A stretch of 64,000 nucleotides of DNA from an uncultured Collinsella sp. (GTDB lineage Bacteria; Actinomycetota; Coriobacteriia; Coriobacteriales; Coriobacteriaceae). A model generated the notes under the pieces. That model worked only from the letters and a program-made list of their open reading frames with translations. It had not been told where the DNA came from and did no database searches. The stretch covers positions 2,965-66,964 of the forward strand of contig UQHO01000003.1 of assembly GCA_900540995.1 (NCBI GenBank). Direction: 5' to 3'. The number at the start of each line of letters is the position of its first letter. The stretch's first letter is position 1. The position numbers and the translations under genes are program-made. Below, one piece after another: positions 25,296 through 54,605 of this stretch.

Positions 25296-25360
25296 GTTGC
25301 GGTGAAATAGGGACTGTTTGGCGGCCTAACAGGCTTAAACAATCCGTATTTCACCGCAAC
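25296..25360. repeat. Long palindromic hairpin element, copy 1 (degenerate)
   Basis: gttgcggtgaaatagggactgtttg...caaacaatccgtatttcaccgcaac. It sits between the rplE start and the xdhC-like stop, at the left junction of the inserted block. Confidence 0.7.
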
Positions 25361-25378: not shown

Positions 25379-26422
25379 TTAGCGCTTGCGGGGGACGAGT
25401 TTGGTGCGGCGCAGGTGGATCATCTCGGCGGCGATGGAGATGGCGATCTCCTCGGGGTCCTCGGCCTCGATGGCAACGCCGATCGGAAGGTGCAGCTCGT
25501 CGATCTGGTCCTGCGTAAAGCCTTCCTGCTCCAGGCGGGCGCGCACAAAGGCCGTCTTGCGGCGCGAACCCAGACAGCCCAGGTAGGCAGGCTTGGCACG
25601 CATGGCCTGAATCACCACGTCGATATCGGACTTGTGACCCGCCGTGGCGACGACCACCAAGTCGCGCGGACCGATGGGACACAGCTCGCTCAGGTTCTTG
25701 TAATCGACCAGGCGACGATCGTAGACACCGGGCACCCATTCGGGCGTCAACGTGCCGGGGCGGTCATCGCAGGCCACGACGGCAAAGCCCGCCGCCGTGA
25801 GCACGCGCGCCGTCGCGGCGCCCACGTGTCCGCAGCCAAAGATGTAGGTCAGGCCCTCGGGGCAGAGCGTCTCGACGTGCGCCGCGGGAATCTCGGAGGC
25901 GGCGTTAGTGTAGGTGACGTTACTCCCCTCCTCCACCAGTGAAAGCCCGGGGCAGCCCGCAATGGTATGGCGCGATGCCTCGCCATGGTACTCGGCCACA
26001 TCGCCCTCGAGCGCGCTCGCGATAAACGGTTCAAAGTCGATGACGAAGTCGCCGATGCGCCGATAGACCAAGACGTCGGCAATTTCCTGGAACAACGGTG
26101 CCTGGGTCGCATCCAGATGTAGGTAGCACAGGCAGATGGCTCCGCCGCAGATCATGCCGGTATCGGAGTTCTCGCCGCCCATGGTGTAGCGGACCAGACG
26201 CGATTGCCCCGCGGCCAGCAGCTCTCGCGCCTCGTCCAGCGCAAAGAGCTCGATCTTGCCGCCGCCGATGGTGCCCGCCTGGCTACCGTCGGCAAAGACG
26301 GCCATCCAGGCGCCCACGCCGCGCGGCGACGACCCCGCCGTGCCGGCTACGACCACGAGCTCGCACGTCTCGCCAGCACGCAGGGCGACAAGCGCCGCAT
26401 TCACAACATCGAGCTTTTCCAT
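25379..26422 (-). CDS. XdhC/CoxI family molybdenum-hydroxylase accessory protein
   Basis: N-terminal XdhC_CoxI region and a C-terminal Rossmann-like domain (IFGCGHVGAATARVL). It equates to the N-terminal half of E. coli YqeB. Confidence 0.75.
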   Translation of the reverse strand: MEKLDVVNAALVALRAGETCELVVVAGTAGSSPRGVGAWMAVFADGSQAGTIGGGKIELFALDEARELLAAGQSRLVRYTMGGENSDTGMICGGAICLCYLHLDATQAPLFQEIADVLVYRRIGDFVIDFEPFIASALEGDVAEYHGEASRHTIAGCPGLSLVEEGSNVTYTNAASEIPAAHVETLCPEGLTYIFGCGHVGAATARVLTAAGFAVVACDDRPGTLTPEWVPGVYDRRLVDYKNLSELCPIGPRDLVVVATAGHKSDIDVVIQAMRAKPAYLGCLGSRRKTAFVRARLEQEGFTQDQIDELHLPIGVAIEAEDPEEIAISIAAEMIHLRRTKLVPRKR

Positions 26423-26431
26423 TGCCGCCTT

Positions 26432-27226
26432 CTATCCTCTAAAGATATCGGTGAGCATAGCGAGTGCCTCGAGCACGCCGCCGCCGACCGACGTCGCCTT
26501 GTCCGAAATGTAGTTGATATAGCTGGCATCGCCACGCGGATCGACATCGGCGCATTTAAAGCCCTCAGTCACCTGCACGCCGTTCGCCAAAAGCCCGCGC
26601 AGGCAGCCATCGATCTGCGTGCACATGGGCGTATCGTCCGCGTAGCCAATCACGTCTCCGGCGCTCACGATGTCGCCGATTGCGCGGTCGGACCGAAACA
26701 CGCCGGCGGCGGGGCTGTGGATAACGCGCTCCTTGCCATAGCCGGCGATCACGCCCGGCACGCCCGTGTTGGGCTGGGGCGAGCCCTGGGTAATGACGCG
26801 GCCCAAAAAATGCCCGCGCATGGTCTCGACCACGGCGTCGCAATCGACCGGCGCGGTAAAGCCCGGCCCCACGGCGATGACGGTAGGCGCCATGTCGCGC
26901 GTGGTGCCCAGGTTGCGCTTGGCCAAAATCGCGTCGACCACAGCTGCGGGTTTAAGCTCATCGAGCATCTTGGCCTGAGGGTCCACCACGACGGCAACAT
27001 CCCCCGCTTGGGTAATCTCGAGCGCCTCTGCCGGCGTCTGCGCCAAGCGAGCGCGAATGCCCTCGACCTGGACCTCGCCCAGGCGAATAGCCTCGCAAAA
27101 ACTGATTGTGCGGCGGATGCACGTGGGAACCGCGATATCGGCCATAACGACCGACACGCCGGCGCGCACCAAGCGAGCGGCGACACCCGTGGCGATATCG
27201 CCGGCGCCGCGAACATAAACGAGCAT
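26432..27226 (-). CDS. Selenium-dependent molybdenum hydroxylase system protein, YqeB/EF2563 family (C-terminal-half type)
   Basis: A 264-aa protein with the MLVYVRGAGDIATGVA N-terminus. It is adjacent to the xdhC-like and yqeC-like genes. The family assignment is from memory of TIGR03309. Confidence 0.55.
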   Translation of the reverse strand: MLVYVRGAGDIATGVAARLVRAGVSVVMADIAVPTCIRRTISFCEAIRLGEVQVEGIRARLAQTPAEALEITQAGDVAVVVDPQAKMLDELKPAAVVDAILAKRNLGTTRDMAPTVIAVGPGFTAPVDCDAVVETMRGHFLGRVITQGSPQPNTGVPGVIAGYGKERVIHSPAAGVFRSDRAIGDIVSAGDVIGYADDTPMCTQIDGCLRGLLANGVQVTEGFKCADVDPRGDASYINYISDKATSVGGGVLEALAMLTDIFRG

Positions 27227-27328
27227 TCCCGGGGCACCTCCCTGTGCTACGGTTTGAGCAGAGCAAAAGCGGCTCGACCGCTACTCTGATGATTATTTAT
27301 TATCACAGTATTATACGGCGGTGAACAG

Positions 27329-28063
27329 ATGGAAACGGTTAGCGGCAATCTTGCCTCGGCGCTCAGGATCGAGCCGGGCATTACCGCGATTATCGGCAGC
27401 GGCGGCAAGTCGACGTTGCTGAAGACGCTGGGTCTCGAGCTCATGCGCGCCGGCGGCAGGGTGCTTCTCTGTACCACCACGCACATGTTTCCCGTCGCCG
27501 GCGTGCCATGGGACGGGTCGAGCCGTCGCCTGAACGCCGCGCCTTGGAAGCCGGGGACCCTGCATGTTCCCGGCTGTACCTGCGAGGCATGCGCGGGCAT
27601 GAGCCGCGGAAGTATCTGCCAGGCGGGCGTTTTGGACCCGGAGACAGGCAAGCTCTCCTCCCCTGCCGAGCCGCTCGACCAGCTGGCGCAGCGCTTTGAC
27701 TACGTCCTGGCCGAGGCGGACGGCAGCAAGCGGCTCCCGCTCAAGGCCCACGCCGCCTGGGAGCCGGTGATTCCCTCTGGCACGGCCAACATCGTCTGGA
27801 TCGCCGGCGCCTCAGGGCTCGGCAAGCCCATCAACGAAGCCGTCCACCGCCCCGAGCTCTTTTGCGAGCGTTGCGGCTGCGAGCCTACCGACATCGCCAC
27901 ACCCGAGCGCGTCGCCATGGTGCTCAATGCCGAGATGCAGGCGCTGAAACTCAGCACCGCACGCGTCATGCTCAACCAAGTCGACACGCTCAGCGACCCC
28001 ACGATGGCCGACCGCTTCGAGGCAGCTCTCGACCGCCCCGTCGTCGCCAGCAGCCTCAAGTAG
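27329..28063 (+). CDS. YqeC-family selenium-dependent hydroxylase accessory protein (P-loop)
   Basis: A 244-aa protein with the Walker-A-like IIGSGGKSTL motif. This matches the size and context of the YqeC family (TIGR03172). Confidence 0.6.
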   Translation: METVSGNLASALRIEPGITAIIGSGGKSTLLKTLGLELMRAGGRVLLCTTTHMFPVAGVPWDGSSRRLNAAPWKPGTLHVPGCTCEACAGMSRGSICQAGVLDPETGKLSSPAEPLDQLAQRFDYVLAEADGSKRLPLKAHAAWEPVIPSGTANIVWIAGASGLGKPINEAVHRPELFCERCGCEPTDIATPERVAMVLNAEMQALKLSTARVMLNQVDTLSDPTMADRFEAALDRPVVASSLK

Positions 28064-28075
28064 CCGGCCCCATCT

Positions 28076-28150
28076 CCTCAGTTGCGGTGAAATACGGACT
28101 GTTTGGCCGCCCGACGGCCGCAAACAGTCCGTATTTCACCGCAACTGAGG
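28076..28150. repeat. Long palindromic hairpin element, copy 2 (near-perfect; likely bidirectional terminator)
   Basis: cctcagttgcggtgaaatacggactgtttggccg...cggccgcaaacagtccgtatttcaccgcaactgagg, a perfect stem of about 30 bp. It lies between the convergent yqeC-like and hydantoinase genes. Confidence 0.75.
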
Positions 28151-28172
28151 AGGGGACACGGCATCTTTGCTG

Positions 28173-29540
28173 CTAGCGGGGGACGTAGCGGCCGGGCTGG
28201 GCTCCGGTGGGCTCGCCGTCGCGTGCCGCCAGCACGCCGTTCACAAACACGGCCTTGGCGCGGCCATGTGCCTCAAAGCCCTCGAGCGGCGTGTAGTCCA
28301 CGGCCTGATGCTGTGTCGCGGCGCTGATCGTCCAACGCGCGCAAGGATCCCACACGCACACGTCGGCATCGGCACCCTCGGCAAGACAGCCCTTGCGCGG
28401 GTACATGCCAAACACGCGCGCCGGGTTCTCGCTCATCAAGCGGCAGAGGTCCTCGGGTCCCAGCTGTCCCTCAAAGCTCGTGGCAATCGCGACGGGACGA
28501 TGCTCCACGCCGGGCCCGCCGTTGGGAATCGCGCGGAAATCGTCGCGCCCGCGGTCCTTTTGCCCGTGCAGGTTAAAGCTGCAATGATCGGTCGCAATCG
28601 TATCGATCTCGCCGGCCACAAGCGCCTCGCGCAGCGCGGCACGGTCGCCGGCATGGCGCAGCGGCGGGCTCATCACGTACTTGGCGCCCGCAAAGCCGTC
28701 CTCGCCCTGCTCCAGATAGCAGGTGTCGTCGAGCATCAGATACTGAGGGCAGGTCTCGACATAGATATTCTTCTGCCCGCGCGCCTTGGCCGCACGAATG
28801 GCCTCGAGCCCCAACTTGGTCGAAAGGTGCACCACGTTGACTGGGGCGTCGCCGGCCAGGTGCGCCAGATACAGCAGGCGGCTCACGGCTTCGGCCTCAC
28901 ACACGTCCGGGCGGCTGAGCGCATGCCCCTCGGGCCCATGAATCCCCTGCTCGTACACGCGCTTCTGCAGCTCATTCACCAGCGTACCGTTCTCGCAATG
29001 CACGCACAGTATGCCGCCAATACGCTTGAGCTCCTCGAGCACCTCGAGCGTCTCGGCATCGTCCAGGCGCAAATGATCGTAGGCAAAGTAGGTCTTAAAC
29101 GACGATACGCCCGCCTCGCGCATAGCCGAAAGATCGGCGCGGTTGCGTTCATTCCACTCGGCGAGTGCCATATGAAAGGCGTAGTTGGCCGTGCAGGTTC
29201 CGTCGGCACGGCGATGCCACTCGGCCAAGGCATCGGGCATGGTCACGCCGCGGTCGGCCGTCGCGTAGTCCACGATGGTCGTCGTACCGCCGCAGGCAGC
29301 CGCACGCGTGCCGGTTTCAAAGCTATCGGCTGTCCAATCCATGCCGGTCCAGCACTGCATGTGCGTGTGGCCGTCGATAAAGCCGGGAAACACCCAGCAG
29401 CCCGCGGCGTCCTCGACGGTATCGTCGGCGCCCGGCTCAATCGCCGCGGCAATCCGCACGATCTTATCGCCCTCCATGGCAAGATCGGCGCGGCGAAGCC
29501 CCTGGGGCGTCACGAGCGCGCCGTTTTTGATGATGATCAT
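28173..29540 (-). CDS. Cyclic amidohydrolase (D-hydantoinase/dihydropyrimidinase, HyuA-like)
   Basis: A 455-aa protein with the metal-binding GFIDGHTH motif and a hydantoinase-like sequence. An AAGGAG RBS is present. Confidence 0.8.
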   Translation of the reverse strand: MIIIKNGALVTPQGLRRADLAMEGDKIVRIAAAIEPGADDTVEDAAGCWVFPGFIDGHTHMQCWTGMDWTADSFETGTRAAACGGTTTIVDYATADRGVTMPDALAEWHRRADGTCTANYAFHMALAEWNERNRADLSAMREAGVSSFKTYFAYDHLRLDDAETLEVLEELKRIGGILCVHCENGTLVNELQKRVYEQGIHGPEGHALSRPDVCEAEAVSRLLYLAHLAGDAPVNVVHLSTKLGLEAIRAAKARGQKNIYVETCPQYLMLDDTCYLEQGEDGFAGAKYVMSPPLRHAGDRAALREALVAGEIDTIATDHCSFNLHGQKDRGRDDFRAIPNGGPGVEHRPVAIATSFEGQLGPEDLCRLMSENPARVFGMYPRKGCLAEGADADVCVWDPCARWTISAATQHQAVDYTPLEGFEAHGRAKAVFVNGVLAARDGEPTGAQPGRYVPR

Positions 29541-29548
29541 GTTGCTCC

Positions 29549-30163
29549 TTATCGATTCATACAGTTGGCCACGCGATCAAAATACGAGCAGGCGGCAATA
29601 TGCTCCGCTATGCGTCGCTGTCCCTTGGCGGTATCGACATCCCACAGCTCGTAGGCACGCGCTTCGACCAGCGTGACGTCGACGCGACCTTTGAGAATCG
29701 AACCGCCGCCGTCCTTGCCCTCAAGACACATAAGTGCATCGAACAGTTCCGCCGGAAAGAGCACCGGACTCGAAGGCTCACCGCTGCACGCCAAGCGCAC
29801 CGGATGTTTGCGGCCACGCTCGTCAAACGCGTGAACCATGGCATCAAAAGAATCCGCGCTCACAAGCGGCTGGTCGCCCGGCAAAAAGAGGCAACCTTTC
29901 CAGTTGCGTTCGACTCCCCACGAAAGGCCCGCACGGACGCTTTCGCTGCGCAGCTCGCCATCGTGCAGCACGCACGGGCAATGCTTGTCCTCGCAAATCT
30001 GGGCGACCTCGGGCCAACGCGTCGAGACCACAACGTCAAAGCCCCGGGGAACCGAATCGATGGTCCGGGCAATCAGCGGCTCGCCATAGATATCGGCAAG
30101 CATCTTGTTAGAGCCAAACCGCTTGCCCTCGCCCGAGGCCATAATGACGCATCCAAGTTTCAT
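29549..30163 (-). CDS. MobA-like nucleotidyltransferase (molybdenum cofactor cytidylyltransferase MocA/YgfJ-like)
   Basis: N-terminal CVIMASGEGKRFG motif. The start was set at MKLG, which has a GGGGAGG RBS. Confidence 0.7.
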   Translation of the reverse strand: MKLGCVIMASGEGKRFGSNKMLADIYGEPLIARTIDSVPRGFDVVVSTRWPEVAQICEDKHCPCVLHDGELRSESVRAGLSWGVERNWKGCLFLPGDQPLVSADSFDAMVHAFDERGRKHPVRLACSGEPSSPVLFPAELFDALMCLEGKDGGGSILKGRVDVTLVEARAYELWDVDTAKGQRRIAEHIAACSYFDRVANCMNR

Positions 30164-30313
30164 GGTGATACCTCCCCTGAAACCATCGTACCCATAACTC
30201 GCGCCGCGGGCATCCACATCGAAAGCACTTATCCCGCACGCCCGCGATGCAAAAAAGGGGCACCCCGCCGATTGGCAGAGCGCCCCCTTTACATGGCTTA
30301 CCTCAACCCGGCT

Positions 30314-31516
30314 TTAGGCCTGGAGCCAACGAGCGGTGTTGCGCTCGTCGAGGGCCTTGAGGGTAGCGGCGGGATCGGCAACCTTCTGCAGGAACATCAT
30401 GGCAGCGATGGCGTACGGCTTGTAGCTGGCCTCCTTGTACATGCCCACGCGGTGCATGTCGAAGACGTCGGCGTTAACCTCGCCGTGCTCGCAGGAGACA
30501 CCGGAGATGTCGGCGGGCAGCGGGTGCATAAAGATGGTGTCCTGGCCGTTGGCAGTCTTCTCCATGAGCTCGGTCGTAGAGCACCAGTCCTGATGGGTGG
30601 CGTTCTGGGCGAGCAGCTCCTTCTCGAGCGCAGCGATGCCGGCGTCGTCGCCCTCGGCGTACAGGTTGGTACGCTTCTCCATGGCGGCAAACGGAGCCCA
30701 GCTCTTGGGGATCACGATGTCGGCGCCCTCGAAGGCCTCGGCCATGGTGTTGACCTGCTTAAAGGTGGTGCCGGACTCGGCGGCATAGCCCTTGGCGCGC
30801 TCGACGACCTCGGGCATGAGGTCGTAGCCCTCGGGGTGGGCCAGGGTGACGTCCATGCCAAAGCGGGGCAGCAGGCTGATCAGCGACTGCGGGCAGGACA
30901 GCGGCTTGCCGTAAGAGGGCGAATAGGCCCAGGTGACGGCAACCTTCTTGCCCTTGAGGTTCTCGAGGCCGCCAAACTCGTTGATGAGGTAGAGCATGTC
31001 GGCAGAGGACTGCGTGGGGTGATCGGAGTCGGACTGCAGGGAAATAAGCGTGGGACGGTGATCCAGAACGCCGTCCTCGTAGGCCTGCTGCACGGACTCG
31101 GAGACCTCGGCCATGTAGGCATCGCCCTTGCCGATGTACATGTCATCGCGGATGCCGATGACGTCGGCCATGAAGGAGATCATGGTAGCGGTCTCGCGGA
31201 CGGTCTCGCCGTGGGCGATCTGGGACTTCTTCTCGTCCAGGTCCTGCAGCTCAAGGCCGAGCAGGTTGGCGGCCTTAGAGAAAGAGAAGCGCGTACGGGT
31301 GGAGTTGTCGCGGAACAGGGAGACTGCCAGGCCCGAGTCGAAGATCTTGGACGAGACGTTGTTCTCGCGCAGCTCGCGCAGGGCGTCGGCGACGATGTAG
31401 AGCGCCTTGAGCTCGTCGGTGGTCTTGTCCCAAGTGTGCAGGAAGTCGCTACCGTACATACCCTTAAAATCGAGGCCGTTCAGCTGCTCGACGAGCTCGG
31501 TAAACTTAGCGTCCAT
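30314..31516 (-). CDS. YgeW-family knotted carbamoyltransferase
   Basis: STRTR and HPTQ carbamoyltransferase motifs. It is 400 aa from the MDAKFTELV start, compared with the 396-aa E. coli YgeW. The track ORF begins 186 nt upstream. Confidence 0.8.
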   Translation of the reverse strand: MDAKFTELVEQLNGLDFKGMYGSDFLHTWDKTTDELKALYIVADALRELRENNVSSKIFDSGLAVSLFRDNSTRTRFSFSKAANLLGLELQDLDEKKSQIAHGETVRETATMISFMADVIGIRDDMYIGKGDAYMAEVSESVQQAYEDGVLDHRPTLISLQSDSDHPTQSSADMLYLINEFGGLENLKGKKVAVTWAYSPSYGKPLSCPQSLISLLPRFGMDVTLAHPEGYDLMPEVVERAKGYAAESGTTFKQVNTMAEAFEGADIVIPKSWAPFAAMEKRTNLYAEGDDAGIAALEKELLAQNATHQDWCSTTELMEKTANGQDTIFMHPLPADISGVSCEHGEVNADVFDMHRVGMYKEASYKPYAIAAMMFLQKVADPAATLKALDERNTARWLQA

Positions 31517-31717
31517 GGAAATGTCCTTTCTAAAGATGAAACGATCGCAATGAGTAGATGTGCTCCGGCATGCGCGTGTGGCTAGAACATGCAGAGCACC
31601 ATGACGAGGACCCGCCACCGTTGAGGAAGCATGGGAGATAACGACCGCGGGCCCCAAGTCAACAGGGGGTGCCGGGGACACGAGCGTCCCCCGGCTCAAC
31701 AAAATCGAGGAATGGGA

Positions 31718-33103
31718 CTAATCGATCTTGTTGTTGGTCAGACCGGCACGGAACACGGTGGCGTCGCCATCGGCCTGGCTCGGATCGTAGAGGTTCAGGG
31801 CAGCCACATACATGGCGGCAGCGGTGACCAGGTCGTCCTTGTAGGTGACCTCGTTGGGAGCGTGAGCCTGAGACTCGGCACCCGGGCCAAAGCCCACGCA
31901 GGGGATGCCGTAGCGGCCCTGGATGGAGACGCAGTTCGTGGAGAAGGTCCACTTGTCGCACAGCGGGCGACCGGTGCGCTTGTCCATGCTGGGCTCGCAG
32001 CCGATGCGCTCGTCACCAAACATGGCCTTGTGGGCGTCGACGAGGGCCTTGACGTGCGGAGCGGTCTCCTTGTTGATCCACGTGGGGAAGTAAGCCTCGG
32101 TCTCGTAGACCTCGCCGGTCCAGGACGGACGGTCGTACATGTACATGGAGACCTTCACGTCGTCGCCGTACTTCTTGGCAGCCGGCAGGTTGCGGATCTC
32201 GTCCAGGCAGGACTCCCAGGTCTCGCCGGCGGTCATGCGACGGTCGATGGAGATGGCGCAGGAGTCGGCCACGGCGCAACGGCTGGGGCTGGTGTAGAAG
32301 ATCTGGCTGACGGTGCAGGTGCCGCGGCCCAGGAAGCGGGCATCCTCGAAGTGCTCGGGATTGTACTTGGGGTCGAGCATCTTGACGAGACCCTTGATGT
32401 CGGTCGACTCGTCGCAGCCGTTGTTGTTGAGGGCGCGGACGTCGGCGATGATGTCGGCCATCTTGTAGATGGCGTTGTCGCCGCGGTCGGGAGCGGAGCC
32501 GTGGCAGGAGGTGCCGTGAACGTCGACGCGGATCTCCATGCGGCCGCGGTGACCGCGGTAGATGCCGCCGTCGGTGGGCTCGGTGGAAATGACGAACTCG
32601 GGCTTAATGCCGTCCTTGTTGTAGATGTACTGCCAGCACATGCCGTCGCAGTCCTCTTCCTGGACGGTGCCGACGACCATGATCTTGTAGCCCTCGGGGA
32701 TGAGGCCCATGTCCTTCATCATCTTGGCAGCGTAGGTAGCAGAAGCCATGCCGCCCTCCTGGTCGGAGCCGCCGCGGCCGTAGATGATCTCGTCGGTCTC
32801 GTAGCCCTCATAGGGATCGGCGTCCCAGTTCTCGATGTTGCCGATGCCGACAGTGTCGATGTGGGAGTCGATGGCGATGATCTTGTCGCCCTCGCCCATA
32901 AAGCCCATGACGTTGCCCAGGCCGTCGACCTTGACCTCGTCATAGCCAAGGCTCTCCATCTCGGCCTTGATGCAAGCGACAACCTCGCCCTCCTCGCAGG
33001 ACTCAGAGGGATGGGAGATCATAGCGCGCAGGAAGCGAGTCATATCAGCACGATGGGACTCAGCAGCAGCCTTGATAGCGTCGAAATCGAGTTCTTTAGC
33101 CAT
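31718..33103 (-). CDS. M20 family peptidase, YgeY-like
   Basis: M20/ArgE/DapE motifs ([17 protein letters not shown]). It lies between the ygeW-like and dpaL-like genes. Confidence 0.75.
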
Positions 33104-33177
33104 TGTTCATAACCTTTCAAACGAAGGAATCTACCTGTGAGGTGGCGGAGCGATACCTATTTACTCCGCCCCAACGA

Positions 33178-34392
33178 TTAGCAAGTGGGATATTCGCCTT
33201 CCCAAACAATGCGGCGATACTGGTCGGGATCGGTGTCGCCCTCGGTGGAGAAGCAGAGCACGGAGCTCGTCTTGTCCAGGCCGATGAGCTCCTTGAGCTC
33301 GGCGTACTCGGGATCGAGCATGATGGTCTCGACCAGGCCGGTGGTCACTGCGCCGGACTCGCCGGAGATGACGCGCGGGTCGCCCTTCTCGGGAGCGCCC
33401 AGGGTACGCATGCCGCGAGCGGTGACCCAGTCGGGGCAAGACACGAAGGCGGTGGTGTGGTTGCGCAGGATATCCCAGCCCAGGATGTTGGGCTCGCCGC
33501 AGCACAGGCCGGCCATGATGGAAGGCATGTCGCCGTCCACGATACGCGGATCGCCATCGCCGGCGGCAGCACCCTTGTACAGGCAGGCGGCAGGCGCGCA
33601 CTCGACCACAACAAAGGTCGGCGGGTTATCGGGATACAGGTTGGTGAAGTAGCCCACCACGGCGCCGGCCAGCGAGCCCACGCCAGCCTGGACAAAGACG
33701 TGCGTCGGGCGGTTGATGGCCATCTCGCGCAGCTGCTCGGCAGCCTCGGAAGCCATGGTGCCGTAGCCCTCCATGATCCAAGACGGGATCTTCTCGTAGC
33801 CCTCCCAGGCGGTGTCCTGAACGATAACGCCGCGCTCGCAGGCGTCGGCCTCGGCGGCCGCCATGCGCACGCACTCGTCGTAGTTGACCTCTTCGATGGT
33901 CACCGTGGCGCCCTCGGCGGCGATGTTATCGAAGCGGGGCTTGGTGGAACCCTTGGGCATGTGCACGACAGCCTTCTGGCCCAGCTTGTTGGCAGCCCAT
34001 GCCACGCCGCGGCCATGGTTGCCGTCGGTGGCGGTAAAGAAGGTAGCCTGGCCAAAGTCCTTGGCAAGCTGATCGGAAGTCAGGTAATCGAAGGTGCACT
34101 CGGCAACGTCCTTGCCGGTCTCGTCGGCAATGTAGTTGGCCATGGCAAACGAGCCGCCCAGGACCTTAAAGGCGTTGAGGCCAAAGCGATAGCTCTCGTC
34201 CTTAACGCACAGGTTGGACAGGCCCAGACGCGCGGCCTGGCCGTCCAGGCGGGCAAGCGGAGTGACGGTGTACTGGGGGAACGACTGGTGGAAGGCGCGG
34301 GCCTTCTTCACGTGGTCGAGACTCATGATTCCCAAGTGCTTGTCATCGCTCTTGGGCATCGTGTTGCTCGCCCACTGGATCTTATCGGCCAT
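33178..34392 (-). CDS. dpaL: Diaminopropionate ammonia-lyase (YgeX-like, PLP-dependent)
   Basis: A 404-aa PLP fold-type II protein with strong resemblance to DpaL/YgeX. An AAGGAG RBS is present. Confidence 0.8.
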   Translation of the reverse strand: MADKIQWASNTMPKSDDKHLGIMSLDHVKKARAFHQSFPQYTVTPLARLDGQAARLGLSNLCVKDESYRFGLNAFKVLGGSFAMANYIADETGKDVAECTFDYLTSDQLAKDFGQATFFTATDGNHGRGVAWAANKLGQKAVVHMPKGSTKPRFDNIAAEGATVTIEEVNYDECVRMAAAEADACERGVIVQDTAWEGYEKIPSWIMEGYGTMASEAAEQLREMAINRPTHVFVQAGVGSLAGAVVGYFTNLYPDNPPTFVVVECAPAACLYKGAAAGDGDPRIVDGDMPSIMAGLCCGEPNILGWDILRNHTTAFVSCPDWVTARGMRTLGAPEKGDPRVISGESGAVTTGLVETIMLDPEYAELKELIGLDKTSSVLCFSTEGDTDPDQYRRIVWEGEYPTC

Positions 34393-34669: not shown

Positions 34670-35323
34670 ATGACCCCCGCACAGATTGAGTTTTACAAGC
34701 GCCTCGCACACGGCCTGGCGCTCCAATTTGGCCCCAACTGCGAAGTCGTCGTCCACGATCTGGAGACCGAGGACGTAGACCACTCCATCGTAGTGATCGA
34801 AAACGGCCACGTCAGCGGGCGCAAACTGGGTGACGGCCCCAGCCATATCGTGTTTGAGTCCATGCACGAGGGCGCCACCGATGTACACGACCGCGAGCCG
34901 TACCTCACTAAAACCACCGACGGTAAGCTGCTCAAGTCCTCGACGATCTTTATCCGCAACGATGAGGGCAAACCCGTCGGCATTTTGGGCATCAACTTTG
35001 ACATTACGCTTATGAAGGCTTTTGAGCGTTCGCTCGACGCCTTTACCGGCACCGGCGGCACGGGCTATACCGAGCCCGAGCCCATTACCAAGAACATCGG
35101 CGACCTGCTCGAGGACCTGCTGCACGAGTGCGAGCAGTTTGTGGGCAAGCCCGCGGCACTCATGACCAAAGACGAGCGCATTCGTGCCATTGGCTACCTC
35201 GACCGTCGCGGCGCCTTCCTCATTTCCAAGTCGAGCGAGCGCGCCTGCGAGTTCTTTGGCATCTCCAAATACAGCTTCTATAGCTACCTCAATGAGGCCA
35301 AGGCGGCGGCCGGCGACAAGTAG
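34670..35323 (+). CDS. YheO-like PAS-domain/HTH transcriptional regulator (DauR-like)
   Basis: A 217-aa YheO-family protein. It is a paralog of the 54958-55614 gene. Confidence 0.7.
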   Translation: MTPAQIEFYKRLAHGLALQFGPNCEVVVHDLETEDVDHSIVVIENGHVSGRKLGDGPSHIVFESMHEGATDVHDREPYLTKTTDGKLLKSSTIFIRNDEGKPVGILGINFDITLMKAFERSLDAFTGTGGTGYTEPEPITKNIGDLLEDLLHECEQFVGKPAALMTKDERIRAIGYLDRRGAFLISKSSERACEFFGISKYSFYSYLNEAKAAAGDK

Positions 35324-45230: not shown

Positions 45231-48008
45231 CTACCCGCGGTTGCGGACGCGGCTGTAGGGCGTATCCACCATGGGCAGATTTGGACGCAGCTTGCCGTCA
45301 AACGCGCGGTAGGCGTTCTGTACGGCGGGCGCCGTGGGGATCGTTGCGATCTCGCCGATGCCCTTGCCGCCGTATGCCACGGGCAGCAGCTCGTCCTTCT
45401 CCACGTAGATGGCGTGGATATCCGGAATCTCGGGCGCACGGAACAGCCCGAGCGTGCCGTACCTTGCCTGGGGCACGCAGTCCTTGAGCGGCCAGTCCTC
45501 GGTAAGCGCATAGCCCATACCCATGAGCACGCCGCCTTCGATCTGACCCTGGATGGAGATGGGATTGACCACCTTGCCGGAATCGTGCGCAGCATAGACC
45601 TCGCTCACGCGGCCGTCATCATCCAGAATGACCACATGCGTGGCAAAACCGTAGCAGATGTGGCTCTTGGGGTTGGGAACGTCGGCGCCCAGCTTGTCGG
45701 TCGGCTCCAGGTACACGTACCCAAACTCGCAGCCCTCGAGCGCCTTGATGGCGGCAGCGGGATCTTGAGGATGCATACCCTGGCCGGCGACGAGTTCCTG
45801 TGTGTGCAGCTGATAGGCGCGACCGTCGTCGTACTCGATCTTGACGCCATCACCATGGGCGCTCACAGGAGCATCGGGTGCATGCTTGCCGGCCTCGATG
45901 TCAAGCATGGCATCGCGCAGCAGGAAGGCGGCACCGCGCACGGCCTCGCCGGTCACGACCGTCTGACGCGAGCCAGACGTGGTGCCGGAGTCGGGAGCGT
46001 TCTCGGTAGAGCACTCGCCATTGGCGATGCAGCGAAGCGGCAGGCCGCATGCCTCGGCAACGTCCTGCAAAAAGACCGTGTTGCAACCCTGGCCGATGTC
46101 GGACGTGGCGGCATAGACCACGGCCACGCCGTCCTCGATGCGAATCTTGCAGCGGCCGGCATCGGGCAGGCCAACGCCCACGCCGGCGTTCTTCATGGCG
46201 CAGGCGATACCGGCGTGTCCGGGATGCGCATAGTAGGCATCCTTGACCTCGAGCAGCGTCTCCTTCAGCGCCGTGGAGCAGTCGGCAATCTGGCCGTTGG
46301 GCAAAACCTCGCCCGGCTCGATGGCGTTTCGGTAACGAATCTCCCACGGATCCAGGCCGACCTTCTCTGCCAGCAGGTCGATCAGGCTCTCGAGCGCAAA
46401 CTCGGACTGGCAAACGCCAAAGCCTCGGTACGCGCCGGCGGGCGGGTTGTTGGTGTAGTAACCAAAACCGCGAATGTCGGTGTTCTGGTACTTGTAGGGG
46501 CCGACGGCATGCGTGCAGGCGCGCTCGAGCACCGGGCCGCACAGCGACGCGTAGGCGCCGGTGTCAAAGTTGATCTCGCAGTCCAGACCGGTAAAGTTGC
46601 CCTCGGCGTCGCAGCCCAGCGTAAAGGTGCCGTCCATGGCGTGGCGCTTGGGATGGAACGCGAGCGACTCGGCACGCGTGAGCTTGCACTTCACAGGACG
46701 CTGGAGCTTATAGGCAGCAAGCGCGGCCAGGTGCTGGATCGAAACGTCCTCCTTGCCGCCAAAACCGCCGCCCACAAGCATGGTCTCGACAACCACACGC
46801 TCGGGCTCGTTGTCCCAGCCAAACATGTGGGCGCACTCTTTGCGCGTATCGTAGGCACCCTGGTCGGTCGACTGCACCTTGACGCCGTTCTTGTACGGGA
46901 AGGCGACGGCGCACTCGGGCTCCAAGAAGGCATGCTCGGTAAAGGGCGTGGTAAAGCGCTGCGTCACGGTGAACGCGCTCTCCGCTAGCGCCTTGGCGGC
47001 GTCGCCGCGCGTCACGTGACGGCTCTGGCACACGTTGTCCTTGAGTTCCACCGTGTTGCCAAAGGCAAAGAAACTGTCATGCAGGCGCGGGGCGTCGGCA
47101 GCCCTAGCTTCGACAATGTTGCGCACGGGCTCCAGCGGCTCGTAATCAATCTTTACGAGCTTCTTAGCCTTCTCGAGCGTCGCCTCGTCCTCGGCAACCA
47201 CCAGCACGATGGCGTCACCCACGCAGCGGGTGATATCGCCCTGGGCGATCATGACATCCCAGTCCTGGATAAGGTGGCCGACCTGGTTGACCGGCACGTC
47301 CTCGGCGCGCAGGATGCCCACCACACCGGGCAGGGCCTCGGCCTTGGAGGTATCAATGGAGAGCACGCGGGCGCGCGGATACTTGGAGCGCACGGCGCTA
47401 GCATAGGTCAGGCCCGGCTGATCGAGCTCGTCGATGTCGTCGGGATACTTGCCCTCGCCGAGCACCTTCTTGCGCACGTCGATGCGGAAGGCGCGCTTGC
47501 CCACACCGTAGTCGTCGCCGCGCTCCAGGTCCTCGTCGATCTGCTTTTCGCCGCGGAGCACCGCAGCTGCCAGCGAAATGCCCTCGATGATCTTCTTGTA
47601 GCCGGTGCAGCGGCAGACGTTACCGCGAATGGCGTACTTGATCTGCTCCTCGGTGGGCTCGGGGTCCTCGGCGATGAGCGCCGCGCCCGCCATGACCATG
47701 CCGGGGATGCAAAAACCGCACTGCACGGCGCCCACGGCGCCAAAGGCGTACACAAAGGCCTCGCGCACGTCCTCGGGCAGGCCCTCGACGGTCACGATAT
47801 TACGGCCGGCGGCAAGAGCGGTGGTCAGCACGCACGCCTTGACGGCCGCGCCGTCCACATGGATGGTGCAGGTACCGCAGGCGCCCTCGGAGCAGCCGTC
47901 CTTAGCGGAATGGATATGCAGGTCGTCGCGCAAGTAGCGGAGCAGCGGCTTGTTCTGAGTCGTCGTGCGCTCGACGCCGTTAACGGTAAAAGTGAATTCC
48001 TGTGCCAT
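45231..48008 (-). CDS. Fused [2Fe-2S]/molybdopterin-binding molybdenum hydroxylase (XdhD-like; putative selenium-dependent xanthine/purine hydroxylase)
   Basis: N-terminal ferredoxin motifs (CSEGACGTC, CGFCIPG, CRCTGY) fused to an aldehyde oxidase/xanthine dehydrogenase MoCo domain, 925 aa in all. Confidence 0.8.
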   Translation of the reverse strand: MAQEFTFTVNGVERTTTQNKPLLRYLRDDLHIHSAKDGCSEGACGTCTIHVDGAAVKACVLTTALAAGRNIVTVEGLPEDVREAFVYAFGAVGAVQCGFCIPGMVMAGAALIAEDPEPTEEQIKYAIRGNVCRCTGYKKIIEGISLAAAVLRGEKQIDEDLERGDDYGVGKRAFRIDVRKKVLGEGKYPDDIDELDQPGLTYASAVRSKYPRARVLSIDTSKAEALPGVVGILRAEDVPVNQVGHLIQDWDVMIAQGDITRCVGDAIVLVVAEDEATLEKAKKLVKIDYEPLEPVRNIVEARAADAPRLHDSFFAFGNTVELKDNVCQSRHVTRGDAAKALAESAFTVTQRFTTPFTEHAFLEPECAVAFPYKNGVKVQSTDQGAYDTRKECAHMFGWDNEPERVVVETMLVGGGFGGKEDVSIQHLAALAAYKLQRPVKCKLTRAESLAFHPKRHAMDGTFTLGCDAEGNFTGLDCEINFDTGAYASLCGPVLERACTHAVGPYKYQNTDIRGFGYYTNNPPAGAYRGFGVCQSEFALESLIDLLAEKVGLDPWEIRYRNAIEPGEVLPNGQIADCSTALKETLLEVKDAYYAHPGHAGIACAMKNAGVGVGLPDAGRCKIRIEDGVAVVYAATSDIGQGCNTVFLQDVAEACGLPLRCIANGECSTENAPDSGTTSGSRQTVVTGEAVRGAAFLLRDAMLDIEAGKHAPDAPVSAHGDGVKIEYDDGRAYQLHTQELVAGQGMHPQDPAAAIKALEGCEFGYVYLEPTDKLGADVPNPKSHICYGFATHVVILDDDGRVSEVYAAHDSGKVVNPISIQGQIEGGVLMGMGYALTEDWPLKDCVPQARYGTLGLFRAPEIPDIHAIYVEKDELLPVAYGGKGIGEIATIPTAPAVQNAYRAFDGKLRPNLPMVDTPYSRVRNRG

Positions 48009-48020
48009 GGTGATTCCCTT

Positions 48021-48500
48021 CTACACGCCGGCGGCGATGCCGGTGCGGTCGTGGATGGCGCCATGCGGGCAGACGACGGCGCACATGCCGCACGACAGGC
48101 AGTCCGCGCCGTCGATATGGGCGCAGTTGTCCTCGATGCGGATAGCGCTGGCAGGGCACTTTTTGGCGCACATGCCGCAACCGATGCAGCTCGTGTCGCA
48201 GATCTTGCGCGCAATGGCGCCCTTGTCGGTGTTGTTGCAGCGCACCAGGATGTTCTGGTAGCCGGGAACGAAGGCAATCACGCGCTGTGGACACGCCATG
48301 CCGCACAGGCCACAGCCCGTGCACTTAGAGCGATCCACGCGGGCGATGCCATCGACCAGCGCAATGGCACCGTGGGGGCAGGCCGTGACGCAGGCGCCAC
48401 AGCCAATGCAGCCTTCGCTGCAGCGGGCGTCGCCGCCTGCGGAGGCGCAACCGCTTCCGCAGGCAACGTAGGCCACGTTATGTTGAATGGATTTGGCCAT
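48021..48500 (-). CDS. 4Fe-4S ferredoxin-domain protein (YgfS-like)
   Basis: Multiple CxxCxxCxxxCP motifs in 159 aa. Confidence 0.75.
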   Translation of the reverse strand: MAKSIQHNVAYVACGSGCASAGGDARCSEGCIGCGACVTACPHGAIALVDGIARVDRSKCTGCGLCGMACPQRVIAFVPGYQNILVRCNNTDKGAIARKICDTSCIGCGMCAKKCPASAIRIEDNCAHIDGADCLSCGMCAVVCPHGAIHDRTGIAAGV

Positions 48501-51659: not shown

Positions 51660-53015
51660 TTAGTAGGTGCGTTCGTTGAGCGTGCTCCAGAGCTTCTTGG
51701 ACTCAGCCATGGTCCACGCGTTGATCTTGTCCTCATCAATGCCAACGAACTCGCGATCCTTGTACAGGACGCGGCCGTTGATGATGGTGGTGCGGCAGTT
51801 TTTGCCCATCATGCCAAAGAGCATGTGGCCGTCGATGTTCTCCTCGCTCAGCGGCGTAAAGGGCTTGTAGTCCATGACGATGACGTCGGCGGCAGCGCCG
51901 GCCTCGAGCACACCGAGCTTGCGATCGAAGTACTTGCTGGCCATCTTGGCGTTGTTCTCGAACAGCATCGTCATTGCCTCGCACCAGCCCACGTTGGGCA
52001 TAGCGGCGTTGTGACGCTGAATGATCAGGAAGACCTTGAGGCTCTCGAGCATATCGTGGGTGTAGGCATCGGTGCCCATGCACACGGGGATGCCGCGGCG
52101 GAAGAACTCGAGCACGGGGGCGCAGCCTACGGCGTTGCCCATATTGGATTCTGGGTTGTTGACGAGCCAGGTGCCGGACTCCTTGACGATATCCATCTCG
52201 GCAGGCGTCACGTGGATGCAGTGGCCGAGCATGGTGTCGGGACCCAGCAGGTTGTGCTGCAGCAGGCGCTCGACGGGGCTGATACCACCGCGGTTGAGGC
52301 GGGAATCCCACACGTCGTTCATGCCCTCGCACACATGGATGTGGAAGCCGGTCAGGCCGTTGTTGGCCTCGGCCATCTTATCCATGGTCTCGTCCGAAAG
52401 TGTAAAGGTGGCATGTCCGCCAAACATGGCAGCGATCATGTGGTTGTCGTTGTCGCGACGCTCCTTGGCGGCCCACTGGGCAAATTCGGCGTTCTCGGCA
52501 ATGGCCTGGTCGCATTTTTCCTGGCCGCGGCGATCGGAGACCTCGTAGCACAGGCACGAACGCATGCCCAGCTCCTGAGCTGCATCCTTAATGGTAAAGA
52601 GGCTTCCCGGGATCTCGCAGAAGCTCGCGTGGTGGTCGAAGATCGTGGTGACACCATCGCGAATGGAGTCCAGAATCGTGGCATAGGCGCTTGCCTTGGT
52701 GCCGTCGAGTGTCAGATTGTCGTCGATCTTCCACCACTGCTGCTCAAGATTCTCCAGGAAGTTGGTGGGGTTGCAGCCCTTAATGGCAAGGCCGCGGGCC
52801 AGACCCGAGTAGATGTGGGTGTGGCAGTTGATGAGTCCGGGCATGATGAGGTTGCCCTGGGCATCGACGTACTCGGCATCCGGGTACTTGGCCTTGAGCT
52901 CGCACTCGGGACCTACTTCGACGATCGTATCTCCGTCAATGGCGACCGCACCGTTTGGAATGAACGGGGCCTGAGCATTGCGGGTAAAGACGGAACCGTT
53001 AGCGACCAGAAGCAT
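51660..53015 (-). CDS. ssnA: SsnA-like amidohydrolase (chlorohydrolase/deaminase family)
   Basis: GLINCHTHIYSG metal-binding motif in a protein of about 450 aa. The start was placed at the second ATG, which has an AAGGGAG RBS. Confidence 0.75.
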   Translation of the reverse strand: MLLVANGSVFTRNAQAPFIPNGAVAIDGDTIVEVGPECELKAKYPDAEYVDAQGNLIMPGLINCHTHIYSGLARGLAIKGCNPTNFLENLEQQWWKIDDNLTLDGTKASAYATILDSIRDGVTTIFDHHASFCEIPGSLFTIKDAAQELGMRSCLCYEVSDRRGQEKCDQAIAENAEFAQWAAKERRDNDNHMIAAMFGGHATFTLSDETMDKMAEANNGLTGFHIHVCEGMNDVWDSRLNRGGISPVERLLQHNLLGPDTMLGHCIHVTPAEMDIVKESGTWLVNNPESNMGNAVGCAPVLEFFRRGIPVCMGTDAYTHDMLESLKVFLIIQRHNAAMPNVGWCEAMTMLFENNAKMASKYFDRKLGVLEAGAAADVIVMDYKPFTPLSEENIDGHMLFGMMGKNCRTTIINGRVLYKDREFVGIDEDKINAWTMAESKKLWSTLNERTY

Positions 53016-53210: not shown

Positions 53211-54605
53211 TTACTTCTTGCTCTCGGGCAAGACCAGATCCACGGCAGCGTCCTTGGCAGCATCGATGTGCTGAGCCACGACCGGCGTCTGCGGAAGGAT
53301 CAGGTTAAGGACAATGGCCATGATGGCGGTGGGGGTTACGGCATTGGAGCCGATGACGGTGGGCACCCAGGTGGGCATACCCTCACCGGCAAGGCAACCG
53401 CTGGCCATCCAGATACCCAGGCCAAAGACGACGGAGGTACCGACGATGGTGGTGGTGCGCTGCGTGAGGCCCTCGCGGGTGAACATGCGCACGCCGTTCA
53501 TGGTGATGGTGCCAAAGACGCCGACGGTCGCGCCGCCGATGACGGGCTGCGGGATAGCGGAAAGGACGGCAGAGAGCTGCGGGAACAGGCCGGCGATGGC
53601 AAAGACGGCCGCGATGATCACAAAGACCCACTTGTTGACGACCTTGTTGGAGCAGATGATGCCCACGTTCTGGCCAAGGGCGCTGGTGGGAAGACCGCCC
53701 AGCAGGCCGCCGACCATAGAGGTGAGGCCCTGGGACACGATAGCGCCGGAGAGCTCGCGCTCGGTGGGCATACGGTCGATGGAGCCCAGGCAGGCGGCAG
53801 AGACGTCGCCGATAACCTGGATGGCAACCATGGGGAACACGACGGCAAGGGTAATGCAGACCTCGGGATCAAACTCGAGCGCATAGGGCATGAGCTTGGG
53901 AAGGGCGAAGACCTGGGCGGTGGCGACGCTGGAGAAGTCGATCATGCCAAAGGGGATGGAGACGATCATACCAACGATCATGCCAAAGAACACGGATCCC
54001 AGCTTGAGCGTGCCCTTGCCAAAGTTGGCGAGCGCAAAGACCACGGCGAAGGTGATAAGAGCGACGCACCAGGCCTGCGGGGTGCCCCACAGCGGCGTAC
54101 CCATACCGCCGGCCATATACTTGACAGCCGTGGGATAGAGAGAGACGCCAATGGAGAAGATGACCGTACCGGTCACGACAGGCGGGAACAGCCACTTGAT
54201 CTTGCTGTAGGCCAGACCAAAGAGGACCGCGACGGCGCCGCCGACGATCTCGCCACCCAGCAGCGCACCAAAGCTAAAGCCCGAGGCACCCATGGCCTGC
54301 AGGGCCGGCAGAAACGCGAACGAAACGCCCATGACGATGGGCAGGCCGCCGCCGATGCGACGGAAGGGAGCGAAGGCCTGAAGGGCCGTGTCGATCGCCG
54401 AAAGAATGAGCGCGACCTGGATGATGTCGGTGCTCTGCTGGCTATTAAAGCCGTAGACGCCGGCCATGATGACCGCCGGGGTAATGATGCCGGCAAACGA
54501 TGCCAGTACGTGCTGAAGGGCACACGGGATCATTTCCTTAACGGGAGGCATACCTTCGCGAGTGAACAGGGCTTCAGTGCCGTTCGTAACCGTCTCCTGG
54601 GTCAT
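53211..54605 (-). CDS. NCS2 family nucleobase:cation symporter (xanthine/uric acid permease-like)
   Basis: Multi-TM protein with NCS2 hallmarks. Confidence 0.8.
   Translation of the reverse strand: MTQETVTNGTEALFTREGMPPVKEMIPCALQHVLASFAGIITPAVIMAGVYGFNSQQSTDIIQVALILSAIDTALQAFAPFRRIGGGLPIVMGVSFAFLPALQAMGASGFSFGALLGGEIVGGAVAVLFGLAYSKIKWLFPPVVTGTVIFSIGVSLYPTAVKYMAGGMGTPLWGTPQAWCVALITFAVVFALANFGKGTLKLGSVFFGMIVGMIVSIPFGMIDFSSVATAQVFALPKLMPYALEFDPEVCITLAVVFPMVAIQVIGDVSAACLGSIDRMPTERELSGAIVSQGLTSMVGGLLGGLPTSALGQNVGIICSNKVVNKWVFVIIAAVFAIAGLFPQLSAVLSAIPQPVIGGATVGVFGTITMNGVRMFTREGLTQRTTTIVGTSVVFGLGIWMASGCLAGEGMPTWVPTVIGSNAVTPTAIMAIVLNLILPQTPVVAQHIDAAKDAAVDLVLPESKK

Follow-up and report, generated by a model that had tools for sequence, protein, structure and literature searches.

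A predicted urate-reduction gene cluster, with a ferredoxin gene beside its molybdenum hydroxylase, lies inside a broken ribosomal protein operon of Collinsella

We analyzed a 64,000-nucleotide stretch of DNA from an uncultured Collinsella sp. (NCBI GenBank assembly GCA_900540995.1, contig UQHO01000003.1, positions 2,965 to 66,964 of the forward strand; hereafter the window), which carries a gene cluster predicted to reduce uric acid anaerobically by way of 2,8-dioxopurine and to mature a selenium-bearing molybdenum cofactor (Moco). About one third of the urate of humans is removed by gut bacteria, with this pathway as the route, and Collinsella is among the most abundant Actinomycetota of the human gut. 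The open reading frames (ORFs) of the window were mapped and then scanned with NCBIfam profiles at their curated equivalog cut-offs and with Pfam profiles at their gathering thresholds, and identities to Escherichia coli orthologs were taken from BLASTP. The features of the cluster are as follows, with profile scores set against the NCBIfam or Pfam cut-off where one is given.

25296..25360, minus strand: terminator-like hairpin closing the yqeB-xdhC operon (-42.2 kcal/mol, z = -8.2)
25379..26422, minus strand: XdhC-like Moco chaperone, 347 aa, second gene of the yqeB-xdhC operon (Pfam)
26432..27226, minus strand: stand-alone YqeB core of the EF2563 family, 264 aa (TIGR03309)
27329..28063, plus strand: YqeC, 244 aa, divergently transcribed (TIGR03172, 154.8 against 73; Pfam PF19842, 113.5 bits)
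28173..29540, minus strand: D-hydantoinase/HyuA-type ring-opening amidohydrolase, 455 aa (TIGR02033, 507 against 393)
29549..30163, minus strand: MobA/MocA-like nucleotidyltransferase, 204 aa (Pfam NTP_transf_3, 100.6 bits)
30164..30313, minus strand: ygeW-mocA intergenic region, the allele without carbamate kinase, with a terminator-like hairpin (locus comparison)
30314..31516, minus strand: YgeW knotted carbamoyltransferase, 400 aa (TIGR03316, 728 against 500)
31718..33103, minus strand: YgeY M20 ureido-hydrolase, 461 aa (NF009555, 622 against 321)
33178..34392, minus strand: DpaL/YgeX 2,3-diaminopropionate ammonia-lyase, 404 aa, first gene of the lower operon (TIGR03528, 613 against 532)
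34670..35323, plus strand: YheO-like regulator 1 (PAS_6 and HTH_22), divergent from dpaL (Pfam PAS_6, 127 bits; HTH_22, 56 bits)
45231..48008, minus strand: FAD-less molybdenum hydroxylase with fused 2Fe-2S and Moco domains, 925 aa (TIGR03311, 1129 against 830)
48021..48500, minus strand: polyferredoxin, 159 aa, 22 Cys, four CxxCxxCxxxC motifs (motif count; Pfam Fer4 families)
48512..51511, minus strand: YgfK, NADPH:2,8-dioxopurine oxidoreductase type, 999 aa (TIGR03315, 1287 against 835)
51660..53015, minus strand: SsnA amidohydrolase, 451 aa (NF005540, 632 against 444; TIGR03314, 553 against 455.5)
53211..54605, minus strand: NCS2 nucleobase permease, 464 aa, first gene of the upper operon (NCS2_1, 64 against 40)
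54958..55614, plus strand: YheO-like regulator 2, divergent from the permease gene (PAS_6, 118.5 bits; HTH_22, 64.7 bits)
55727..56104, minus strand: RidA enamine/imine deaminase, 125 aa, after regulator 2 (TIGR00004, 160.5 against 106)

A preliminary description of this DNA had assigned positions 25379-34392 to a selenium-dependent molybdenum hydroxylase system. Every gene that it named is present at, or a few codons from, the coordinates it gave, and the gene order is rearranged relative to E. coli, as it had said. The assignment agrees with the profile scores of the ygeW, ygfK, ssnA and xdh-type genes and of the selenium-cofactor markers YqeB and YqeC; the YqeB, YqeC, YgfK and SsnA scores, on which the assignment had been made to depend, all lie above the trusted cut-offs. 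The range given, however, holds the maturation and lower-pathway half, and the catalytic half lies outside it at 45231-54605, about 11 kb further on. The SsnA and YgfK families that were suggested for searching (TIGR03314 and TIGR03315) are both passed; for the hydroxylase, TIGR03311 is passed but the XdhD family TIGR03313 is not (229 against 1102). Curated cut-offs are thus exceeded by YqeB, YqeC, the selenium-dependent xanthine dehydrogenase family (the hydroxylase), YgfK, SsnA and four of four lower-pathway proteins (hydantoinase, YgeW, YgeY and DpaL). Identity to E. coli orthologs whose activities were reconstituted is 32-61%: YgeW 61%, YgeY 59%, DpaL 50% (to YgeX), YgfK 43% over its full length, the hydantoinase 38% (to HyuA) and SsnA 32%. 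The genes for YgfK and SsnA are on the same strand as, and contiguous with, the hydroxylase gene. The permease passes NCS2_1 but not pbuX (340 against 414) or ncs2 (282 against 292).

Among the maturation proteins, the YqeB core scores 348.6 bits against a TIGR03309 cut-off of 220, covers model positions 1-255 of 256 and is 55% identical to residues 270-526 of E. coli YqeB; no Pfam family was matched. YqeC is 32% identical to E. coli YqeC. The XdhC-like protein passes the Pfam gathering thresholds of XdhC_CoxI (69.6 bits) and XdhC_C (124.3 bits) and is 31-39% identical to residues 22-253 of E. coli YqeB. The MocA-like protein, which gave no BLASTP match to E. coli MocA at E <= 1e-3 and passed only the broad Pfam family NTP_transf_3, is a probable Moco cytidylyltransferase. 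The AlphaFold2 model of the YqeB core (pLDDT 85.6) consists of a Rossmann-like N-domain, bearing an invariant R-G-A-G-D...G loop, and a barrel-sandwich C-domain of the biotinyl/lipoyl type; in the comparison with the PDB the C-terminal ~70 residues alone matched such barrel-sandwich domains. When the Rossmann-like domain was compared with XdhC_C, of which it might be a diverged form, hhalign gave a probability of 8% over 33 columns.

The arrangement is not peculiar to this contig. In the assembly collection, 4677 indexed blocks contain a YqeB protein identical to that of the window, and the gene order is identical in six independent assemblies that carry it (isolates and metagenomes, on long contigs). 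A search with ribosomal protein L5 yielded 80 species-level loci, all from Collinsella/Coriobacteriaceae, with L5 100% identical in 78 and 99% identical in two. About 70 species-level Collinsella loci keep the cluster at 85-100% protein identity, wherever enough upstream sequence is present. Because the same order recurs in the six assemblies and in these ~70 loci, the arrangement is no chimera or assembly artifact. Judged by its sequence, the window holds a copy of the C. aerofaciens-group cluster.

The pathway itself has been reconstituted with enzymes of other organisms. XdhD or XdhAC (2,8-dioxopurine dehydrogenase, DOPDH) reduces urate to 2,8-dioxopurine. After reduction of the ring by YgfK, the two rings are opened by SsnA and HyuA; the ureido groups are then removed by YgeW, which gives ATP together with carbamate kinase, and by YgeY, and YgeX forms pyruvate (PMC12507026; bioRxiv 10.1101/2025.04.24.650524). 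Selenium, SelD and YqeB are required in Clostridium sporogenes and C. difficile, and YqeBC and SelD were found in all cluster-bearing strains of the library studied, with two Collinsella among the named carriers (bioRxiv 10.1101/2025.04.24.650524). C. aerofaciens ATCC 25986 was one of the three species whose urate-induced RNA-seq defined the cluster, and urate induction, urate consumption and the formation of short-chain fatty acids are on record for it. The system, its substrate and its occurrence in C. aerofaciens are already published, and the existence of the cluster is not new; the view of the preliminary description that the substrate was unknown has been overtaken by the 2025 reports of the pathway and of the interconversion of urate and 2,8-dioxopurine (PMC12507026; bioRxiv 10.1101/2025.04.24.650524).

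On this evidence we consider it very likely that the region encodes an anaerobic reductive uric-acid (2,8-dioxopurine) pathway, together with the maturation of its selenium-molybdenum cofactor, in two operon blocks that each have a divergent YheO-like regulator. The steps follow what has been published on the enzymes of E. coli and C. sporogenes, and the window genes were assigned to them by homology to these orthologs. Urate would enter through the NCS2 permease, and the FAD-less selenium-dependent hydroxylase (45231-48008) would remove the C6 oxygen to give 2,8-dioxopurine, probably with electrons from the adjacent four-cluster ferredoxin. YgfK would reduce the ring with NADPH, and SsnA and the hydantoinase would open the two rings to give 2,3-diureidopropionate. 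YgeW would phosphorolyze one ureido group to carbamoyl phosphate, from which ATP could be made only with a carbamate kinase, which is not in the cluster here; YgeY would hydrolyze the other ureido group, and DpaL would convert 2,3-diaminopropionate to pyruvate and ammonia. RidA plausibly clears the 2-aminoacrylate enamine arising from DpaL. For the cofactor, family roles suggest that the MocA-like protein makes the cytosine dinucleotide form of Moco, that the XdhC-like protein holds and inserts it, and that the labile selenium ligand is put in place by YqeC and the stand-alone YqeB core, with selenophosphate from SelD as its source.

The identity of the hydroxylase is central to this reading. 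Its Pfam domains are Fer2_2, Ald_Xan_dh_C and MoCoBD_1/2, with no FAD domain, and it is 29% identical to E. coli XdhA and 27% to E. coli XdhD. Since it is this distant from XdhD and falls in TIGR03311 rather than in the XdhD family, its membership of the DOPDH group was tested directly on architecture and residues. According to Liu et al. (bioRxiv 10.1101/2025.04.24.650524), DOPDH differs from bovine xanthine oxidoreductase (XOR) by F1009V and A1078T/S; when the window enzyme was aligned with bovine xanthine dehydrogenase (1fo4_A) in HMMER, F1009 corresponded to V612 and A1078 to S678. Aldehyde oxidoreductase of the D. gigas type has Leu and Gly at the two positions and E. barkeri nicotinate dehydrogenase has Thr and Ser, so Val at the F1009 position is specific. 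Orthologs that are 52% identical, in two unrelated clusters from other taxa, carry the same two residues. We predict that the enzyme is a urate/2,8-dioxopurine dehydrogenase of the XdhAC/DOPDH type. Its best NCBIfam model, TIGR03311, is named ‘selenium-dependent xanthine dehydrogenase’, and it might instead be a conventional enzyme of that kind that feeds xanthine or hypoxanthine oxidatively to urate or into classical clostridial purine fermentation. The slightly closer identity to XdhA than to XdhD would agree with this, as would an adenine deaminase-like gene about 20 kb from the cluster (4799-6619, minus strand; TIGR01178, 463.6, just under the cut-off of 472.5). However, the name of the model is older than the 2025 biochemistry, V612 and S678 are both the DOPDH signature, and the gene shares one operon with ygfK and ssnA, whose products act on 2,8-dioxopurine and its product. 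C. sporogenes XdhAC, of the same architecture, was likewise expected to make xanthine and yet yields 2,8-dioxopurine. We regard a conventional xanthine dehydrogenase as very unlikely.

Several points weigh against the assignment of the region to urate reduction. Every catalytic step is transferred from orthologs that are just 27-61% identical; the hydroxylase marks the lower end of this range, against XdhD, and its family name speaks of xanthine. The permease has one of the two urate-type residues: Ser95 stands at the UacT T100 position, where Thr or Ser fits, and Gly311 at the S317 position, where Ser is expected. The MocA-like and XdhC-like proteins are both under the NCBIfam equivalog cut-offs (TIGR03310, 99.7 against 186.45, for the former; XdhC_rel_AOR (NF045664), 217 against 350, and TIGR02964, 142 against 161.6, for the latter). 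The YqeB core model had no whole-chain structural relative in the PDB (TM-score <= 0.32), and the roles of YqeB and YqeC come from genetics and comparison, not biochemistry. As neither selD nor a carbamate kinase gene is in the window, selenium supply and ATP yield rest on the literature about other strains.

The ferredoxin gene lies between those for the hydroxylase and YgfK, and its product is under all NCBIfam cut-offs. The preliminary description had called it YgfS-like and had placed it in the position of the FAD subunit. The first label has to be dropped, since the likeness to E. coli YgfS is generic Fe-S similarity (27% over 90 residues, E 1.5e-5) and weaker than the match to the N-terminus of YgfT; the second idea is reasonable, the ferredoxin being a conserved neighbor of FAD-less hydroxylases elsewhere. 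Homologs from two other lineages (53% and 46% identity) are encoded 2-4 nt downstream of XdhAC in SsnA-YgfK-XdhAC clusters, and the ferredoxin-XdhAC adjacency is seen in three independent lineages. More distant relatives are RnfB-type proteins of 265-278 aa with an N-terminal PF04060 domain. For DOPDH, Liu et al. gave the physiological electron donor as unknown and mentioned no cluster ferredoxin (bioRxiv 10.1101/2025.04.24.650524), while Li et al. suggested reduced ferredoxin as the donor in general terms (PMC12507026). From its gene position, the cluster polyferredoxin is the obvious candidate for this donor. It may wire DOPDH to YgfK and NADPH or, in one lineage, to a neighboring formate dehydrogenase-like system. 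An unrelated organism of 46% GC (L104/L105, 8698-14893) has an SsnA-YgfK-hydantoinase-YqeB-XdhAC-ferredoxin cluster, and the next genes encode a FocA-like channel, an NAD-linked formate-dehydrogenase-like set, FdhD, a MocA-like protein and MoeA; this layout hints at formate as a reductant for urate reduction.

Queries with E. coli YqeA, YgfM and XdhB found no match in the 64-kb window, the SsnA paralog was the sole match there to E. coli GuaD, and the best tblastn match to SelD had E = 0.4, which bears out the earlier statement that this DNA lacks selD and genes for carbamate kinase and an FAD subunit. The kinase gene varies between strains. Among the 52 species-level loci in which the ygeW-mocA interval was visible, a carbamate kinase of 314-316 aa lies between the two genes in 14, and a gap of ~150 nt takes its place in 38; in locus L004 the kinase gene is at 5933-6883. 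C. tanakaei and C. ihumii also carry the kinase, suggesting that it is ancestral. The middle 138 nt of the kinase-less gap are unmatched in a kinase-bearing strain and have their own hairpin. We considered whether the gap might be a deletion scar of the kinase gene, but found none, as the kinase-less allele holds 138 nt of unrelated sequence. In the published survey, 33 of 39 strains have carbamate kinase next to YgeW, and the kinase was not required for membership; two Collinsella cluster carriers keep it elsewhere on the chromosome, and it is not needed for flux, stimulating YgeW and capturing ATP (bioRxiv 10.1101/2025.04.24.650524). A contig labeled C. aerofaciens ATCC 25986 (L086) has the kinase inside the cluster, whereas Liu et al. 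place the kinase of that strain elsewhere.

The missing kinase and selD could also mean that the pathway is incomplete or energetically crippled here, with the genes being relics or serving another function, and the presence of the kinase in 14 of the 52 related loci and in C. tanakaei and C. ihumii, which points to an ancestral gene, would agree with such a loss. We consider this very unlikely. The kinase-less allele is the majority form, with a uniform, tidy gap, and all the other genes are intact and highly conserved; moreover, the kinase is dispensable for flux, Liu et al. place it elsewhere in two Collinsella strains, and C. aerofaciens consumes urate and is induced by it.

The most unusual feature of the cluster is its location. 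On the minus strand, the ribosomal protein genes run S3-L16-L29-S17-L14-L24 (rplX stop at 61791) and resume with L5 (rplE, 24510-25067), followed by S14-S8-L6-L18-S5-L30-L15-SecY, so that 36.7 kb of non-ribosomal genes (25068-61790), the urate cluster among them, part rplX from rplE and interrupt the spc operon. The gene rplX was found upstream of rplE in none of 86 loci examined; the loci retrieved with L5 are Collinsella/Coriobacteriaceae with near-identical L5. The break is also present, with different contents, in C. tanakaei, C. ihumii, C. phocaeensis, a C. vaginalis-type contig, Collinsella sp. zg1085 and a Coriobacteriaceae metagenome-assembled genome. A metagenomic relative with an 83% identical rplX product (L106) has a gap of 3.6 kb with just two genes, for a U32-family protein and an RluA-family pseudouridine synthase, on the opposite strand. 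In the window the same pair is found on the rplX side of the gap (56405-59572, plus strand; the U32 protein has 830 aa and a DUF3656 domain) and is therefore probably the original insert. It seems that an insertion of two genes opened the break, which then expanded to 36.7 kb as a landing zone in which metabolic and defense genes settled. A second U32 paralog of 661 aa is encoded at 8150-10135 (minus strand), and both U32 proteins are under the TrhP and UbiU cut-offs; an RNA-modification role for the U32 protein is speculation. Two plus-strand ORFs nearer rplX (59582-60070 and 60149-61483) were rejected as shadow ORFs by codon-position GC; it is the minus strand that carries the real genes there, for a DeoR regulator and a GFO_IDH_MocA oxidoreductase. 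In three genomes of the Collinsella lineage (L098, L099 and L100), a non-ribosomal gene (His_Phos_1 or EIIA-man), not rpsJ (S10), lies ~600 nt upstream of rplC (L3), and the S10 operon may be broken at a second place too in these loci. A literature search found no report of the rplX/rplE break in Coriobacteriia.

On the rplE side, the break is bordered by signals of its own. The hairpin that closes the yqeB-xdhC operon is followed by UUUUU, and 0 of 200 shuffled sequences were as stable. A promoter-like site (TGGAAA-17-TATAGT, 25233-25205, minus strand) and a ~130-nt leader precede rplE (region 25068-25233), and this upstream region is conserved in four lineages whose upstream neighbor genes are all different. 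The consensus structure of the leader has 32 pairs, with 97.4% of cells paired and compensatory changes at seven pairs, against 2.2 +/- 1.2 in shuffles (0 of 500 reach seven) and at most two in slid registers; it matched no Rfam family. The leader is a candidate for a new ribosomal-protein leader, and the evidence is suggestive, not proof, because there are only about four independent lineages and the structure was derived from the same alignment. The hairpin and the promoter-like site are consistent with two separate transcription units.

A recently acquired mobile island would be another way to explain a 36.7-kb block that interrupts an otherwise universal operon and has strain-variable restriction-modification and candidate defense genes in its middle. 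This is most improbable, however, as the break is genus-wide with varying contents, including the minimal two-gene version, and purine genes adjoin rplE even in lineages whose YqeB is just 64% identical. The GC content of the block matches that of its flanks, and no integrase or transposase was found among those of its ORFs that were scanned. Transfer RNA genes were looked for as possible island borders, and there are none in the whole window. Taken jointly, a conserved ferredoxin as possible DOPDH donor and a cluster set inside a genus-wide spc break, grown from a two-gene insert and leaving rplE with its own promoter-like site and leader, make up a proposal that we hold tentatively, with somewhat less than even confidence. 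Neither the ferredoxin partnership nor the ribosomal-operon setting is described in the two 2025 pathway papers, and we regard them as modest leads.

The YqeB core can be placed by its domain architecture. E. coli YqeB has 541 aa, with an XdhC-like N-terminal half (22-253) and a C-terminal core (270-526). In the window we found not a single polypeptide of ~540 aa but two ORFs of 264 and 347 aa, with the core first on the coding strand and the XdhC-like gene 9 nt downstream, in an order opposite to that of the domains in E. coli; the preliminary description was right that they are separate and close together, with the spacing given as 10 nt. The 120 closest homologs of the core have 178-414 aa and none is of ~540 aa; the NCBI name comes from the short Enterococcus EF2563. 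We also surveyed representatives of clusters at 50% identity, taking the best 150, among which 68 cores stand alone, 23 follow an XdhC-like domain and four precede one; most of the others have YqeC, MocA or a different partner joined to one end or the other, and one protein of 777 aa (P0148) joins YqeC, MocA and the YqeB core. As the unfused core is the commonest form, E. coli YqeB is one fusion variant among many. This Rosetta-stone pattern is good comparative evidence that the YqeB core, the XdhC-like protein, YqeC and MocA would act together in cofactor maturation. The preliminary description had instead seen an E. coli YqeB split into two genes, and although their spacing and their joint coverage of both halves of E. 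coli YqeB invite the idea that an ancestral fused yqeB was cut by a frameshift or stop and is perhaps decaying, we consider this extremely unlikely, since cutting an E. coli-type fused gene cannot give the core-to-XdhC order, both ORFs are intact and 93-100% conserved over ~70 Collinsella loci, they are separate in C. tanakaei and C. ihumii too (core 64% identical), none of the 120 close homologs has the size of a fusion, the stand-alone form is the commonest of the 150 diverse representatives, and the unrelated organism of 46% GC has a stand-alone core with no XdhC-like neighbor.

YheO-like regulator 1 has a 44%-identical homolog divergent from ssnA in an unrelated cluster (L102), regulator 2 is called as 218 aa in related contigs, and the position of ridA is conserved in six related contigs. 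Directly downstream of regulator 1, in all related contigs, is a gene for a conserved 328-aa protein (35447-36433, plus strand) of low complexity, rich in Pro, Ala and Thr, with one C-terminal hydrophobic segment and no family match. The two operons are separated by a strain-variable island of ~10 kb (35351-44886). Here it holds four ORFs without a family, a DEDDh exonuclease and two ATPases that match the PADLOC candidates PDC-S01 and PDC-S27; in other strains it holds type I restriction-modification systems or helicases, and in L093 the operons are only ~2 kb apart. The four ORFs, at 35.3-40.8 kb, had no PADLOC, Pfam or NCBIfam match. A full-length S-adenosylmethionine (SAM) riboswitch (RF00162, 36700-36790, plus strand; 45.4 bits against a gathering threshold of 44.4) precedes three plus-strand ORFs (~250, 604 and 411-423 aa; to 40780), likewise without a match in these collections. 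The Rfam scan of the whole window at gathering thresholds found no Moco, purine or other riboswitch at the cluster; its matches were the SAM riboswitch in the island and an L31-Coriobacteria leader (RF03128, 679-714, minus strand; 35.1 against 33), the latter consistent with the taxon. About 11 Collinsella loci have an extra 458-aa Xan_ur_permease gene between the XdhC-like gene and rplE (for example 8303-9679 in L014), which is not in the window. In the Collinsella loci L081 and L085, the XdhC-like, YqeB and YqeC genes adjoin rplE without a hydantoinase, YgeW, YgeY or DpaL gene within 10 kb, and the MocA-like gene is divergent (74-76% identity); these loci may hold a different hydroxylase system or a reduced cluster.

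For predicting urate-lowering capacity from metagenomes it matters that the cluster be annotated correctly, as urate reduction and not as ‘xanthine dehydrogenase’ or ‘selenate reductase’. The presence or absence of carbamate kinase, the extra permease and the defense island that splits the cluster are strain markers for such predictions, and the ferredoxin is a testable candidate for the electron donor of DOPDH.

Compared with the E. coli ygeW-ygeX-ygeY-hyuA-yqeA / yqeB-yqeC / mocA-ygfK-ssnA-ygfM-xdhD genes (PMC12507026), the window has eight orthologs and would carry out the same overall chemistry. It differs in having no YgfM FAD subunit, YqeA carbamate kinase, sigma-54 regulator YgeV or GuaD, and in a hydroxylase of TIGR03311 rather than of the XdhD family TIGR03313. 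The Collinsella YqeB is unfused with its XdhC-like partner downstream, a ferredoxin occupies the place of ygfM, the regulators are YheO-like, and the cluster is cut into two blocks by the variable island. For the marker families EF2563/YqeB (TIGR03309) and YqeC (TIGR03172), the window proteins are full-length and well above cut-off, with no difference in membership. The window XdhC-like protein shares both Pfam domains with XdhC of the Rhodobacter capsulatus type (TIGR02964), but its gene is in an operon with yqeB, not with xdhAB, and it is under the equivalog cut-offs; by analogy, it presumably handles the selenium-bearing rather than the sulfur-bearing cofactor. The ferredoxin shares multiple CxxCxxCxxxC [4Fe-4S] motifs with E. 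coli YgfS and RnfB-type polyferredoxins and lacks the N-terminal PF04060 domain of the latter. A parallel in the hydroxylase is with C. sporogenes XdhAC (DOPDH) and YgfK (2,8-dioxopurine oxidoreductase, DOPOR), compared here by their published description: XdhAC is also an FAD-less fused 2Fe-2S and Moco hydroxylase, has V and S/T at the XOR F1009 and A1078 positions as the window enzyme does, and likewise has no carbamate kinase inside its cluster, with the dependence on YqeBC and SelD being carried over to the window by analogy. Unlike the C. sporogenes cluster, for which Liu et al. mention no ferredoxin, the Collinsella cluster and those of two other lineages encode a ferredoxin directly beside the enzyme.

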